64,000 nt of DNA. Source: Alphaproteobacteria bacterium. Its GTDB lineage: Bacteria > Pseudomonadota > Alphaproteobacteria > CADEGL01. Each line of letters starts with the position of its first letter. The stretch's first letter is position 1. This document shows positions 20,657 to 58,986 of the stretch, one piece after another. The stretch covers positions 491 through 64,490 of the forward strand of contig JBJXGH010000096.1 in NCBI GenBank assembly GCA_046153685.1. Reading direction: 5' to 3'. The notes below the pieces were generated by a model. The model worked only from the letters and a program-made list of their open reading frames with translations, did no database searches and was not told the origin of the DNA. The translations under genes were made by a program, and so were the position numbers.

Positions 20657-20730
20657 CGGTCAACTCATTTGCCTCCCAAAAGAAATATCCTTAGGTTTTA
20701 TAGGTACTCAATCTTAGAAAGGATGAAGCG

Positions 20731-21159
20731 ATGACGGTTGCCGCCACCCTGCATACGCTGGCGGTCGCGGTGCTTATAGGCGGCATATGCTTTATGTATT
20801 TTGTCATGCGCCCAGCAGCCGCGAGCGTCGATCCCGGCGTGCGCCTGCCGCTTTGGCGCCGGGCATTCCAATATTTCCTACCATGGCTCATCACCGCGGC
20901 GCTCGTGCTGCCAGCGAGCGGCTACTACATGATCGCGACGGAAACCGCTTCGCCCAATGGCAATATCCATCTCAAGCATTTGGCAAGCTGGCTCGCGAAT
21001 ATCCTCCTGATTTACGCCTATCTCGTGCCGTACCGCCGGATGGAAACCGCCATGGGCCAGGGCGAGCGCCCACGCGCGGCGCGCCAACTTGCCCGAATCC
21101 ACTTCATCATGCTCTGCGCCTTGATCGCCCTAGTGATCGCGGCCATCCTTAGCGCCTAA
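20731..21159 (+). CDS. hypothetical integral membrane protein (4 predicted TM helices)
   Basis: 142 aa, hydrophobic segments; AT-rich promoter-like region and aaaggatgaagcgATG RBS upstream. Confidence 0.5.
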   Translation: MTVAATLHTLAVAVLIGGICFMYFVMRPAAASVDPGVRLPLWRRAFQYFLPWLITAALVLPASGYYMIATETASPNGNIHLKHLASWLANILLIYAYLVPYRRMETAMGQGERPRAARQLARIHFIMLCALIALVIAAILSA

Positions 21160-28998: not shown

Positions 28999-29147
28999 GG
29001 GGCGCCCTCCAATGAAGCATAATGGCCATCAAACAGCGCCGACATCGCGGCGCATTCGCACCGCCAGAGGGGCCCGGCACTGATTGCCAATTTTGAGGCG
29101 CGCGATTGGCGCCGTCAAGTCTGGCCTAGGATAACTTTGCGCCGATC

Positions 29148-37351: not shown

Positions 37352-37428
<77 letters not shown>

Positions 37429-37532
37429 ACGAATCGCCAGCATCAGAGCCAGTATATCACGACGTCGCATCGCGCCGCGCGTTACGCCGCTCCGCCCGAG
37501 GGGGCGAGGACGCGATGCCTCCAGTATCCGAC

Positions 37533-37826
37533 CTAACGTATCCGGCTCCAGGAGAAATTGGCGGAGTAACTTTTCGGCGGCACCGTTCTAGTGCGTGCCG
37601 GCACTACGACATGCGCGATGCCGCGCGCCTTTGCATAGGCGACAGCTTCCTCGCAGCTCGCGAATTCGAGACATAGCTGCTGGCGGGTGTCGCCCGAACT
37701 CGTCCAACCCATCAATGGGTCGCGGGCCTTGCGTTCGGACAGCTCGAATTCAAGCACCCATTTATGGGTTTTTGCCCGGCCGGACTGCATGGCCGTTTTC
37801 GTGGGCTGAAAGATGCGCGCAGTCAT
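37533..37826 (-). CDS. ETC complex I subunit family protein (NDUFS4-like)
   Basis: 97 aa; conserved ..KWVLEFE..DPLMGWTSSGDT..QQL.L.F.S.E.A..YA...G pattern. Confidence 0.65.
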   Translation of the reverse strand: MTARIFQPTKTAMQSGRAKTHKWVLEFELSERKARDPLMGWTSSGDTRQQLCLEFASCEEAVAYAKARGIAHVVVPARTRTVPPKSYSANFSWSRIR

Positions 37827-37896
37827 CGTTCTCGTCTTCCCCCGGCGATTTGCCGGACGTTTTGATCATCACGCTTTCCACCGCCGTCCGGGCGAA

Positions 37897-37973
<77 letters not shown>

Positions 37974-40602: not shown

Positions 40603-40699
40603 GCGGATTGTTCCATTCGACGATGGACGCACGCTAGGCGGGGTTGAGGGTGCGCGCAACGCCCCTTGCCAGCCTCAACGGTTTGGCTAGGATCGCACT

Positions 40700-40790
40700 C
40701 AAGCACTCGGGGGAGCCTTCGGGCTGAGAGGTTTCGCTTCGGCGGGACGACCCCAGGAACCTGAACCGGATCATGCCGGCGGAGGGAAGA
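40700..40790 (+). promoter_or_regulatory. TPP (thiamine pyrophosphate) riboswitch
   Basis: CACTCGGGGGAGCC..GGCTGAGAGG..GACCCC..GAACCTGAACCGGATCATGCCGGCGGAGGGAAG matches the THI-element consensus; sits directly 5' of the ABC operon start at 40799. Confidence 0.8.
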
Positions 40791-40798
40791 GTGGGTTC

Positions 40799-41539
40799 AT
40801 GCCGAAATCCGTAGCCGCTTTCGATGTCCGTCTGACGGATGCGCGTCTCGCATTCGCCGGAGCAAAGCTATTCGATGGCCTTGGCCTCACGCTTGAGGCC
40901 GGACTTTGGACGTGCCTGCTCGGCCCGAGCGGGGTGGGCAAAACGAGCCTTCTGCGCCTCCTCGCCGGCCTGCTTCGGAATATGGACGGCGTCATCGAAT
41001 GCGGCGATGGCGAGCCGCTTGCAGGCCGGCTCGCCTATATGGGCCAGCAGGACTTATTGCTGCCCTGGTTGTCGGCCGAGGCCAATGTGGGGCTCGGCGC
41101 GCGGCTGCGCGGCCAGGCACCCGACCGCGCACGCGCGCGCGCCATGCTCGCGCGCGTCGGGCTGGCCGGACGCGAGGCGGACCTGCCGCGCACGCTTTCG
41201 GGCGGCATGCGCCAGCGCGTGGCGCTCGCGCGCACGCTCATGGAAGACAAACCCGTGGTGCTGATGGACGAACCGTTCTCGGCCCTCGACGCCATCACGC
41301 GCCACCGCATCCAGGATCTGGCCGCGGACGTGCTAGCCGGACGGACGGTTTTGCTCGTCACGCACGATCCGGCGGAAGCGCTGCGCCTGGGGCACCGCAT
41401 CCTCGTGATGTCGGGTGCGCCGGCGCGCCTCGAAGACACCGCCCCGCCGCCGGGCGTGCCGCCGCGCGATCCGGCCGCCCCGGACATGGGCGGACAGCTC
41501 GGCCTCCTGCTTGGCCGTTTGGCGGCGGCGGCATTCTGA
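40799..41539 (+). CDS. ABC transporter ATP-binding protein (NitT/TauT family; ThiZ-like)
   Basis: Walker A GPSGVGKTS, signature LSGGMRQRVALARTL, Walker B VLMDEPFSALD. Confidence 0.85.
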   Translation: MPKSVAAFDVRLTDARLAFAGAKLFDGLGLTLEAGLWTCLLGPSGVGKTSLLRLLAGLLRNMDGVIECGDGEPLAGRLAYMGQQDLLLPWLSAEANVGLGARLRGQAPDRARARAMLARVGLAGREADLPRTLSGGMRQRVALARTLMEDKPVVLMDEPFSALDAITRHRIQDLAADVLAGRTVLLVTHDPAEALRLGHRILVMSGAPARLEDTAPPPGVPPRDPAAPDMGGQLGLLLGRLAAAAF

Positions 41540-56738: not shown

Positions 56739-57218
56739 CTACGAGCCCTTGGCTTTCTTGTGCTTCTCGATCTTCTCGGCGAGGTCGCGCTTCTCCTCGC
56801 AATTGCGGCACGCCCTATCGAGCACCTTGAGGCGCTCCTCGGCGGCCGCCAGATCGCCCATCTGCAGATAAAGCTCGCCCAAATATTCGTTCGCGCCTAA
56901 GTGGTTTGGCTCGATGTCGAGGGCGCGTTTGTAGTATCCGAGCGCCTTCTCGCGCTCGCCGAGATTACGGTGGCTATAGCCGAGATAGTTAAGCGCGTTG
57001 GCATTGCGCGGTTCGGTCGCGATGATCTTCTCGAAAAGCGCGATGGCGCCCTTGAAATCCTTGTCCTTCACGGCCTTTTCGGCCTTTGTGTAATCGGGCG
57101 AGCCCTTCGCCGCGCCTGCCGCAGGATCGCTGCCCATCGCCCATGCGCGCTCCGGTCCAGAGCATACCGCCACCAGCAATGCGCCAAGGCCGACCACCAT
57201 CCATATTGGAAATCTCAT
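56739..57218 (-). CDS. TPR repeat-containing secreted protein
   Basis: Start at MRFPIWMVVGLGALLVAVCSG (signal peptide) with GGGGAG RBS; TPR motifs (NALNYLGYSHRNLGEREKALGYYKRALDIEPNH..). Confidence 0.65.
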   Translation of the reverse strand: MRFPIWMVVGLGALLVAVCSGPERAWAMGSDPAAGAAKGSPDYTKAEKAVKDKDFKGAIALFEKIIATEPRNANALNYLGYSHRNLGEREKALGYYKRALDIEPNHLGANEYLGELYLQMGDLAAAEERLKVLDRACRNCEEKRDLAEKIEKHKKAKGS

Positions 57219-57633
57219 CGCGACAACTCCCCGCTTAGTCATGCTCGCCACTTTTGGTTCAACCGATGGGGATAATACGCATGGCGATGTGGCAGGTCCG
57301 TCGCCGAATCGGTAAAAAGGAAATTTATCCGGCTGGGACGACCGAAGCGATTTGGATTCGGCCGACGCCGCCCAGGGTAATTGACCATGGCCCGGATTGC
57401 GATTTAAGGACCTCGATTCGAGGGTAATTCAGAGAAATAAGACAAACTTACAGGTACAATATTATGGTTCAACCTTGGAATTTTAATTCGCGCCGACCAA
57501 TTCGGCCAAGTTTCTATTTTAGAATTAGGTGCTCCTTAGGGCCTTCTTTAATTTGACGAAATAAATTGACATTTTAGCCTTTTCCTAGGTACTATGGTTG
57601 TGACCGGCACCCAGAGATTATACAAACGAGACC
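57219..57633. repeat. anomalous AT-rich intergenic region with multiple short direct repeats
   Basis: About 40-45% GC versus ~65% flanking. TGGTTCAACC appears twice, GGGTAATT twice, GATTCG several times, AGGTAC-(N)-TATGGTT twice, and TTGAC -35-like hexamers several times. Confidence 0.6.
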
Positions 57634-58986
57634 ATGGCACGCGTTACTTTTACTGACGATGTCCTTCAGGTTCAGCCCCCTTCTCGCGGGCAAATCGATC
57701 TTTGGGACGAATCGTTCCCCGGATTCGGTCTGCGTATTTCGCAAGGTGGAACCCGCGCATGGGTAGTCATGGTTCGCCGCGACCGCCGCAAGGTTCGCGT
57801 GACGCTCGGCACCTATCCCGAAATGCCCGTCGAGACCGCACGTGGCCTGGCCCGCAGCCTGCTAGATGAAAGTCGCCGGCAGCACGGTACGCCACGACGC
57901 GGACGCGTCCCACGCGCCATGAGGTCTGCGGACTCGCGACATGCGCCTGCGGAGTATGCCGTCGATCCCGCCGCCGCCGGACTCCTGCCGGTATCATCGG
58001 CCGAGTTCCGGCGCACGGCCGCGCGACTCATTCAATTGATGGGCGAATTGCTTCGCCCCGATATGGCCCCCCCCGAACGCGACGCGCTCGACCGCCTGAT
58101 CCAGGCTGGCGCGCATATGGCCCCGACTCCCCCCGGGCTAGCGAAGGCCAGCCCGACCCTTCCCTCGGAAAGCCATGCGCCCGTCGCCACAGCGGACGTT
58201 ACGACCCCGATCCATAAGCCGCCCTCCGCCCAAAAGCCGCGCCTATTGCTGGTGGAGGACACCGAGCTCAATCGTTTGGTCACGCTGGCCATGCTGGGCA
58301 CGGCGCGGTTCGACATCGATTGCGTAACCAGCGGTGAAGCTGCTCTGGCCTCGGCGCAGGAAATTCTCTACGACGTGATTCTCATGGATATTTCCATGCC
58401 CGAAATGGACGGCATCGCCGCCACGCGCGCAATCCGCAGCCTGGCACCGCCCGTGTGCGACGTTCCGATTCTGGCTTTGACCGCCCATGCCATGGTTGGC
58501 GACCGCGAGCGCTGCCTAGCTGCGGGCGTGGATGACTACCTGCCCAAGCCCGTATCACGCAGCGATCTGTTGGAGCGCGTCGAGCGCTTCGCCCGGCATG
58601 GCCGCGCAGCCGCCGCCGATATCACGGGTGCGAGCGATGAGCCCGCGCTGAATCCCGAAGCGTTCGAGCAGCTACGAAGGGATTTAGGCCCGGCCTCGTT
58701 GATGCAGCTGTATGACGCAACCTTGCCTGAGCTTCAGACCCGCACGGCGGCCGCCAAGGCCGCCAACGAAGCTCGCGATCTCGACGCCCTGGCCCGCATC
58801 GCCCACTCGCTCAAGGGCGTCGCGACAACAATCGGCGCAAGGCGCCTTCAGGCCGCGACGACAGCGCTCGAAGCTGCGGCGCGCTCGGGCAGTACTCACG
58901 AAATCGCGCGCCTCCTCGAAAGCCTCGATGCACTTTCGGAAAAAACCATTCGCGCAATCGCCGCCGAACGCAGTCGAATCAGCTAG
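57634..58986 (+). CDS. chimeric regulator with phage-integrase N-terminal arm-type DNA-binding domain (DUF4102), receiver (REC) domain and Hpt domain
   Basis: aa 1-80: LQVQPPSRGQIDLWDESFPGFGLRISQGGTRAWVVMVRRDRRKVRVTLGTYPEMPVETARGLA matches the P4-type integrase arm-binding domain. aa ~202-318: REC with LLLVEDTELN..D(252)ISMPEMDG..ALTAH..K(305)P. aa ~340-445: Hpt with H391 in IAHSLKGVA. No integrase catalytic domain is present. The 5' ~150 nt has lower GC and AT-ending codons. Confidence 0.7.
   Translation: MARVTFTDDVLQVQPPSRGQIDLWDESFPGFGLRISQGGTRAWVVMVRRDRRKVRVTLGTYPEMPVETARGLARSLLDESRRQHGTPRRGRVPRAMRSADSRHAPAEYAVDPAAAGLLPVSSAEFRRTAARLIQLMGELLRPDMAPPERDALDRLIQAGAHMAPTPPGLAKASPTLPSESHAPVATADVTTPIHKPPSAQKPRLLLVEDTELNRLVTLAMLGTARFDIDCVTSGEAALASAQEILYDVILMDISMPEMDGIAATRAIRSLAPPVCDVPILALTAHAMVGDRERCLAAGVDDYLPKPVSRSDLLERVERFARHGRAAAADITGASDEPALNPEAFEQLRRDLGPASLMQLYDATLPELQTRTAAAKAANEARDLDALARIAHSLKGVATTIGARRLQAATTALEAAARSGSTHEIARLLESLDALSEKTIRAIAAERSRIS

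Follow-up and report, generated by a model that had tools for sequence, protein, structure and literature searches.

Arm-type sites, self-repressed integrase promoters and autoregulated response regulators are already known. Lambda Int recognizes its arm-type sites (P1, P2 and P'1-P'3), which are short direct repeats with adjacent sites about one helical turn apart, through an N-terminal beta-sheet domain. Phased direct repeats with an 11-bp period are present at autoregulated promoters of the PhoB/OmpR type, and the AP2 domains of eukaryotes have been proposed to be domesticated DNA-binding modules of mobile elements. In the KplE1 (CPS-53) prophage of Escherichia coli, the integrase IntS represses its own sigma-70 promoter, at which the arm-type site P'1 overlaps the -10 box (PMC2951348). 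A Pfam check found the domain PF13356 in IntS, and the intS promoter has TTGACA as its -35 hexamer. Here we analyzed an AT-rich spacer in a 64-kb stretch of an alphaproteobacterial contig (JBJXGH010000096.1; the whole stretch is referred to as the window), which lies between a divergent TPR gene and a gene for a protein composed of an N-terminal integrase arm-type domain (Arm), a REC domain and an Hpt domain. Comparison with related loci makes it probable that a domesticated integrase arm domain uses this spacer as an autoregulated divergent promoter whose operator boxes are of the arm type.

The locus resembles intS in that a PF13356 Arm protein is preceded by a TTGACA -35 hexamer and, just upstream of the gene, by a repeated arm box lying over the -10 hexamer, with further boxes upstream. 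The boxes also belong to the same class as 11-bp tandem pairs located upstream of true integrases with related Arm domains. Unlike intS, the locus has no recombinase core or catalytic domain, core-type site, tRNA or excisionase, and the gene is a stable chromosomal one; the IntS boxes contain TAAA whereas those described here contain TAGGT, and repression has been demonstrated experimentally for IntS whereas we infer it here. With lambda Int the locus shares short direct repeats spaced about one helical turn apart and an N-terminal beta-sheet domain, but it differs in Pfam family and site sequence, and the lambda sites serve intasome assembly rather than transcription of a signaling gene. The resemblance to PhoB/OmpR-type promoters lies in a REC protein, repeats about one turn apart at its own promoter, and phosphorylation that probably controls binding. 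In contrast to those regulators, which have a C-terminal winged helix, the protein carries its DNA-binding domain, an integrase arm-type one, at the N-terminus, and its REC domain precedes an Hpt domain, an order shared with the C-terminal part of hybrid kinases of the BarA/ArcB/TorS type. The AP2/ERF and ApiAP2 proteins likewise use an integrase-type beta-sheet domain (the AP2-integrase DNA-binding fold) as a transcription factor module, but they are eukaryotic, lack REC and Hpt, and have no significant sequence or structure match to the protein studied here; in Foldseek, matches to a Plasmodium AP2 domain were weak, non-significant (E>1) and ranked after the integrases. If the proposed reading is true, a phosphorelay protein would read DNA through an integrase arm domain and its cognate sites, a use of both that is separate from recombination, and bacteria would offer a clean case in which the DNA-binding module of a mobile element was domesticated as a transcription factor.

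The assignment of the N-terminal domain was supported by both profile and structure comparisons. The match to PF13356 scored 36.2 bits against a cut-off of 27 (E=6.7e-9), and phmmer matched the domain to 3JTZ with E=0.006. An AlphaFold model of the Arm domain alone, with a predicted local distance difference test score (pLDDT) of 89.7, shows the beta-sheet and C-terminal helix fold of integrase arm domains. When this model was submitted to Foldseek, the only significant matches in the PDB were 3JTZ, 3RMP and 3JU0, the arm-type domains of the HPI and HAI7 integrases, with template-modeling (TM) scores of 0.72-0.76 and root-mean-square deviations (rmsd) of 1.5-2.2 Å; the best match, 3JTZ, had TM scores of 0.76/0.83 and an rmsd of 1.5 Å. 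As modeled, the N-terminal domain has the integrase arm-type fold, and it is predicted to bind arm-type repeats. With the full-length model, Foldseek returned REC domains only, the closest being receivers of hybrid kinases. In the family alignment, D209, D252, T283 and K305 of the REC domain are invariant, H391 of the Hpt domain is nearly invariant (one aligned sequence ends before this position), and the Arm domain is among the most conserved parts, pointing to strong constraint. A search of 5.8 billion proteins found the Arm+REC+Hpt architecture in about two dozen clusters with 42-88% identity. Full-text literature searches for DUF4102/Arm domains in combination with response regulators or receivers gave nothing relevant.

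Nine of these clusters, together with a metagenomic family member (L097), were assigned to three syntenic clades, A, B and C, of which clade A comprises the window and the loci L001 and L002, its two closest orthologues (proteins 88% and 86% identical). The spacers are almost unalignable between clades, and the elements that survive in all of them are a TTGAC(A) hexamer and a TAGGT[A/G]C box, for which the orthologous spacers give the consensus YTAGGT[A/G/T]C (YTAGGTDC). This box was also recovered in an unbiased count of all 5-, 6- and 7-mers in seven representative orthologous spacers from the three clades, judged against 2000 dinucleotide shuffles. The top 5-mer was TAGGT/ACCTA, with 26 copies in the seven spacers against 3.6 +/- 1.9 in the shuffles (maximum 12), and it was the only 5-mer with at least two copies in 7/7 spacers. 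Its density is 5-27 per kb in the spacers compared with 0.6-1.9 per kb in their loci. Columns within the boxes are invariant more often than other columns in each of the three clades (fractions of 0.77 vs 0.48, 1.00 vs 0.52 and 0.49 vs 0.16), and the longest invariant runs of clade C are ATAGTACC, TAGGTG, TTGACA, TAGGT and ACCTA.

The positions of the boxes follow a recurrent plan. In every clade, the first TAGGT begins 17-20 nucleotides (nt) past the start of TTGAC. In the window this proximal box lies within CCTAGGTACTA, an 11-nt run that is invariant in clade A and is the longest such run in the 3' half of the alignment. A position weight matrix (PWM) built from the other clades, the hybrid kinase locus described below and integrases, with no clade-A sequence, gave its best score across the 64-kb window at 57586 (16.8 bits). 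Further boxes, in every clade grouped into a pair or an array, lie 80-135 nt before the start codon. In the window they form the pair 57526/57537, approximately 65-76 nt upstream of the predicted start site, and clades B and C have box pairs at the corresponding position. The second position of the pair reads AAGGTAC in L001 and AAGGTAG in L002, and the 11-bp phasing of the pair is the same as that of the tandem pairs of integrases. The upstream boxes are two direct copies in clade A and an inverted pair in clade B, while clade C has an array on the opposite strand and an exact 11-bp tandem pair, TAGGTGCCTCTTAGGTG, beside TTGACA. A composite site at 57452-57470, AGGTACAATATTATGGTTC, matches an invariant clade-C block, AGGTACTATATTTAGGTTC (in the opposite orientation), at 16/19 positions, a score that was reached in 0/2000 shuffles.

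We also compared the boxes with the upstream regions of other Arm-domain genes. A metagenome collection scanned with an Arm-only alignment yielded L097, a hybrid kinase locus (L100) and several dozen integrase-like loci. A scan with the full-length alignment drew its patterns from the REC domain; 79 of its 80 loci encode unrelated REC proteins, with L007 as the only family member, and these unrelated loci (611 kb) served as the negative control. L100 (contig Ga0335072_10019253), an orthologue of P0077, encodes an Arm-PAS-HisKA-HATPase-REC-Hpt hybrid histidine kinase according to Pfam, with an Arm domain that is 60% identical and a different gene context. Three TTTAGGTAC boxes (L100:1340-1455) are located 33-110 nt before its start in an AT-rich spacer of a locus with 69.5% guanine-cytosine (GC) content, and the proximal one follows a TTGCAT hexamer at 13 nt, the distance observed in clades A and B. 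Full P4-type integrases with Arm, central and catalytic domains were confirmed by Pfam at five of the integrase loci, one P4-type integrase locus adjoins tRNA-Arg, and several P4-type integrases have (G)GTACCTA boxes immediately upstream of the gene. Exact TAGGT pairs at exactly 11 bp were found in 6/42 integrase upstream regions (14 kb) against 0 in the 611 kb of controls, and one was found in 62 kb downstream of the starts at the same integrase loci. The six loci with such pairs are L098, L103, L115, L133, L139 and L152, where the pairs lie 19-76 nt upstream of the Arm-domain match, which approximates the gene start.

Because the boxes recur at Arm-REC-Hpt, hybrid kinase and integrase genes, the comparison indicates that the TAGGT box tracks the Arm domain over three protein architectures, and the tandem phasing of one helical turn is as expected of arm-type sites. 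YTAGGTDC with 11-bp phasing is a testable candidate arm-site motif for a subgroup of P4-type integrases, and it could help to mark island ends in metagenomic assemblies. At one of the integrase loci, L103, four or five GGTACCTA copies stand upstream of the gene. The arm-type boxes and the hybrid kinase of L100 also suggest a wider undescribed group of arm-domain DNA-binding two-component proteins.

The conserved TTGAC(A) hexamer belongs to a candidate promoter of the regulator gene. A promoter scan returned TTGACA-18-TACTAT at 57566-57595 with 10/12 matches, where two sites were found against 0.4 expected, and the equivalent -10 hexamer in L001 and L002 is TACTAA at a spacing of 17 nt. This sigma-70-type candidate is predicted to start transcription at approximately 57602, which would leave a leader of only about 30 nt. 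The TPR gene and the Arm-REC-Hpt gene would share the spacer as their divergent regulatory region. In the most likely mechanism, the N-terminal Arm domain of the gene's own product, as a domesticated arm-type module of a P4-family integrase, would bind the TAGGT boxes at 57586 and 57526/57537. When bound to the proximal box, the protein would be a competitor of RNA polymerase for the -10 hexamer, resulting in negative autoregulation or at least in tuning of expression, and phosphorylation of the REC domain would probably modulate box binding. The upstream boxes might add cooperativity or control the divergent TPR gene, and the REC-Hpt part may also pass the phosphate onwards. An ancestral integrase gene may have been the common source of the Arm domain, the promoter and the arm boxes. 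On a broader and tentative view, which we regard as possible without leaning toward it, the Arm-REC-Hpt and Arm-PAS-kinase-REC-Hpt proteins would form an undescribed two-component class, in which the arm domain was co-opted along with its TAGGT(A/G)C sites and self-repressed promoter, and the island would be a still functional descendant of an attL arm, a recombination module that has become a transcriptional operator for a phosphorelay protein. The coordinates of the features are collected in Table 1.

Table 1. Positions of the spacer, its candidate elements and the flanking genes in the window.
Feature	Position (strand)	Description	Basis
Divergent AT-rich spacer	57219..57633 (.)	415 bp, 47.0% GC, core 36.5% GC	composition profile
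TPR gene	56739..57218 (-)	small protein, N-terminal signal-peptide-like segment	Pfam TPR families
Clade-A invariant block	57222..57232 (-)	minus strand GGGGAGTTGTC, 11-nt invariant run	
Longest clade-A invariant block, GGGGATAATACG	57268..57279 (-)	minus strand holds TATTAT, 57272-57277	
Candidate composite box, AGGTACAATATTATGGTTC	57452..57470 (+)	overlaps AGGTAC, TATGGTT and TGGTTCAACC copies	
Distal candidate arm-type box, TAGGTGC	57526..57532 (+)	context TTAGGTGC; TAGGTA in L001/L002	
Degenerate candidate box, TAGGGCC	57537..57543 (+)	context TTAGGGCC, 11 bp past the 57526 box; weak alone	
Candidate -35 of the regulator gene, TTGACA	57566..57571 (+)	sole TTGAC copy kept in all clades	four alignments
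Proximal candidate arm-type box, TAGGTAC	57586..57592 (+)	context CCTAGGTACTA, overlaps -10 TACTAT	
Candidate -10, TACTAT	57590..57595 (+)		promoter scan
Regulator gene	57634..58986 (+)	450 amino acids (aa); Arm-DNA-bind_3, REC, Hpt	Pfam, AlphaFold, family alignment
Arm-DNA-bind_3 domain	57634-57888	aa 1-85	Pfam match aa 20-79
REC domain	58240-58599	aa 203-322	Pfam match aa 205-317, 86.7 bits
Hpt domain	58654-58980	aa 341-449	Pfam match aa 359-435, 41.6 bits

Several observations weigh against an operator of this kind. The overlap of the proximal box with the predicted -10 hexamer means that its conservation could stem from promoter function alone. Only two exact TAGGT boxes are present in the window's spacer (P=0.09 vs shuffles), the second member of the distal pair is degenerate, and the number and orientation of the upstream boxes vary between clades, so that the architecture is not fixed. 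The spacers of one clade share descent, and their box counts are thus not independent; the PWM and the 16/19 match were both selected after inspection of the data, and the composite site, which is missing in L001 and L002 (12/19), is of uncertain status. Only clade A has a good -10 hexamer, those of clades B and C being poorer; because clade C has a poor sequence at the usual -10 distance from TTGACA, the promoter model transfers imperfectly. A possible second target at 20692, described below, lacks the exact boxes at the matching place in the clade-B relative L096, leaving the reading without regulon-level support from this one relative. Finally, we infer every functional step, including the binder, the sign of regulation, the start site and the role of phosphorylation, from comparison.

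The overlap with the -10 hexamer, the presence of only two exact boxes, the clade-dependent layout and the lack of conservation of the 20692 site in a clade-B relative would all suit an ordinary AT-rich divergent promoter, in which TAGGTAC is part of a -10 or extended -10 element or the site of an unlinked factor, and the other boxes are by-products of composition or ancestry. We consider this explanation unlikely. The boxes are multiple, occur in both orientations and extend up to 135 nt before the start codon; the same box recurs at the unrelated locus L100, which shares only the Arm domain; 11-bp tandem pairs stand upstream of related integrases and were absent from the 611 kb of controls; and shuffles that preserve composition fail to give the box count. 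These points argue for the autoregulated arrangement with arm-type boxes, which had been put forward as a complex autoregulated promoter in an earlier sequence-only reading of the spacer. That proposal has gained comparative support from the conserved TTGACA, the box positions and the boxes at other Arm-domain genes, with binding itself still predicted.

A non-functional attL or attP relic would also place arm-type boxes in front of an Arm-domain gene. In this case, an integrase gene of a decayed island would have been truncated and fused to a REC-Hpt gene, leaving the boxes as fossils. The boxes are indeed identical in sequence to those beside true integrases with related Arm domains, AT-rich DNA before an integrase gene is typical of att arms, and the layout is like that of an autoregulated integrase-attL arrangement (PMC2951348). 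However, Pfam finds only Arm, REC and Hpt in the product, with neither a core-binding nor a catalytic (Phage_integrase) domain. A tblastn search with the IntS catalytic region returned nothing in the window, in which neither an integrase nor a second Arm-domain gene was detectable and further mobile-element genes were likewise not found. About 19 kb separate the spacer from the nearest tRNA genes, a tRNA search of 57100-57800 gave no match even with the threshold relaxed to E<=10, and comparison of the spacer with phage DNA showed no similarity. Moreover, the gene order XdhC / MobA-like transferase / NifU-like / Fer2-cyclase / TPR (-) / spacer / Arm-REC-Hpt (+) / DAO oxidoreductase (-) is the same in every recovered locus, with the same flanking genes on both sides down to 43% protein identity. 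The fusion of Arm to REC-Hpt is therefore old, and the Arm-REC-Hpt proteins are a conserved chromosomal family rather than debris. Over that time the remaining spacer diverged, but neither the boxes nor the Arm domain lost their conservation, which argues for selection rather than a fossil. Among the hallmarks of an att site, repeated arm-type boxes (with predicted binding) are the only one present here; a catalytic domain, a tRNA core site and a variable island edge are all missing. The relic attP/attL entertained in the sequence-only reading is thus unsupported, either as a present-day recombination site or as a recently decayed island, and we regard a non-functional relic as very unlikely; as an account of where the promoter and its boxes came from, the att reading may nevertheless be right.

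The composition of the spacer bears on the same question. Its GC content is 47.0% compared with 64.3% for the whole window. In 200-nt windows across the 64 kb, values below 50% occur solely within 57266-57755, and the minimum of 36.5% at 57396-57595 is approximately 6 standard deviations under the mean. The AT-rich island described from the sequence alone is thus real and stronger than had been stated, and the boundaries given for it, the divergent TPR gene (56739-57218, minus strand) and the Arm-REC-Hpt gene (57634-58986, plus strand), are correct. The TPR gene is the left neighbor of the spacer in every recovered orthologous locus that reaches that side. The orthologous spacers are 224-420 bp long and all AT-rich, with 42-51% GC vs 63-68% in their loci. 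Because of this shared composition, AT-richness is an old and maintained property of the spacer, that is, a conserved composition of promoter/operator DNA and not of a recent foreign insert, which speaks against the recent decay of an island.

Silencers of the MucR/Ros- and H-NS-like types prefer AT-rich DNA when the genome is GC-rich, and the island could in principle be chiefly the target of such a nucleoid-associated protein. It is the most AT-rich stretch in the 64 kb and its AT-richness is conserved in the orthologues, but a silencer leaves the specific, G-containing box, its fixed positions and its 11-bp phasing unexplained. Silencing would also be compatible with an autoregulated promoter carrying arm-type boxes rather than exclusive of it, and as the chief role of the island we find it highly improbable.

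On the side of the TPR gene, conservation within clade A suggests two further elements. The invariant block at 57222-57232 is probably the ribosome-binding region of the TPR gene, and TATTAT within the longest invariant block is a candidate -10 hexamer for the same gene, with comparable minus-strand hexamers in clades B and C (TATGAT and TGTTAT). No convincing -35 partner for TATTAT was found on this side. A minus-strand promoter match, TTGGCC-18-TAAAAT at 57509-57480, was dropped because the segment is missing in L001 and L002, and an EcfG-type promoter (GGAAC-N16-17-CGTT) was rejected in clade C, where GGAAC is present and CGTT is missing at the right distance.

At 415 bp, the spacer is long, and both its composition and its conservation might instead come from an encoded small RNA, cis-regulatory RNA leader or small protein. 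The inverted boxes of clade B co-vary, since TAGGTGCC-N9-GGCACCTA in some loci corresponds to TAGGTTCC-N9-GGAACCTA in others (L003:4898-4923, L093:677-702 and also L097:1135-1160), with G to T and C to A changes in both halves together; this could mean concerted evolution of a palindromic operator, or a small hairpin. A faint match to the Rfam family Atu_C8 was also seen, but with 14.7 bits (E=7.6), where the gathering score is 50, it is at chance level, and it was the only match at E<=10; no family reached its gathering score in the spacer. The folding energy is no better than that of shuffles on either strand (z = 0.26 and 0.15), and the covariation term of RNAalifold is -0.3 kcal/mol. No terminator-like site was found in the spacer, the predicted leader is short, and the small open reading frames (ORFs) are short and lie in poorly conserved sequence. 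With no Rfam family, excess folding or covariation, the conserved small RNA that had been named as a competing source of the composition did not emerge, and the probability of an RNA or small-protein explanation is close to negligible.

The repeats by which the spacer had first been recognized turned out to be mostly incidental. TGGTTCAACC occurs at 57255 and 57465, GGGTAATT at 57375 and 57422, AGGTAC at 57452 and 57587, and TATGGTT at 57463 and 57593. All of the repeats listed in the sequence-only reading are therefore present, at most 1 nt from the positions given, and the several TTGAC hexamers it mentioned are three in number (57381, 57553 and 57566). GATTCG, reported before each copy of GGGTAATT, is found at 57355 and 57415; the second copy directly abuts GGGTAATT and the first is 20 nt upstream, so that the description holds for one copy only. 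Judged against 2000 dinucleotide-preserving shuffles of the spacer, the excess of exact repeats is marginal and barely above chance, with 6 repeated 8-mers vs 1.9 expected (P=0.04), 3 repeated 9-mers vs 0.5 expected (P=0.04) and a longest exact repeat of 10 nt (P=0.10). In alignment with L001 and L002, TGGTTCAACC, GGGTAATT and TATGGTT are not conserved. Among the listed elements, only AGGTAC at 57587, inside CCTAGGTACTA, and TTGAC at 57566 are kept, and TGGTTCAACC, GGGTAATT/GATTCG and TATGGTT are lineage-specific and near chance. The idea that direct repeats serve as arm sites for the downstream DUF4102 protein has thus gained comparative support through YTAGGTDC, whereas most of the repeats nominated for this role were the wrong ones and only AGGTAC overlaps the box. 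The two TGGTTCAACC copies, which are 210 bp apart, were also considered as a target-site duplication, and this was rejected because the intervening DNA aligns with the relatives.

Additional box pairs were noticed outside the spacers. The 64 kb contain a single tandem TAGGT pair, TAGGTtttaTAGGT at 20692-20705 (context 20685-20735), against 0.01 expected by chance, and TATAGGTACTCA at 20701 is the second-best PWM match in the window. The pair closely follows a DnaE2-like polymerase gene and precedes, by about 30 nt, an ORF (20731-21159) for a CopD/DUF2269-like membrane protein of 142 aa; the Arm-domain protein may have a second target here. In two clade-C loci, a tandem TAGGTGAC(G/A)TAGGT pair (L006:2981 and L087:1981, minus strand) is conserved inside the coding sequence of the upstream Fer2-adenylate/guanylate cyclase, where it could have been kept for the encoded protein or as an internal site.

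Between the Arm and REC domains, the protein has a helical hairpin at aa 123-161 (window 57964-58120 for aa 111-161) with the conserved motif R-T-A-A-R-L-I-x-L-M-G-x-L-L, flanked by two disordered linkers (AlphaFold pLDDT <50). The hairpin has no Pfam match and may be a dimerization element. Arm+REC proteins may also occur outside Alphaproteobacteria, as suggested by a tblastn match in a contig of an Acidobacteriota metagenome-assembled genome (L066, CAVYQB010000022.1, 4001-4942), which covers query residues 23-321, from Arm through REC, at 33% identity. Elsewhere in the window, a TPP riboswitch (40699-40805, plus strand), a terC RNA motif (29030-29085, minus strand) and the genes for tRNA-Arg(tct) and tRNA-Pro(tgg) (37352-37973, minus strand) scored above the Rfam gathering score and are unrelated to the spacer.

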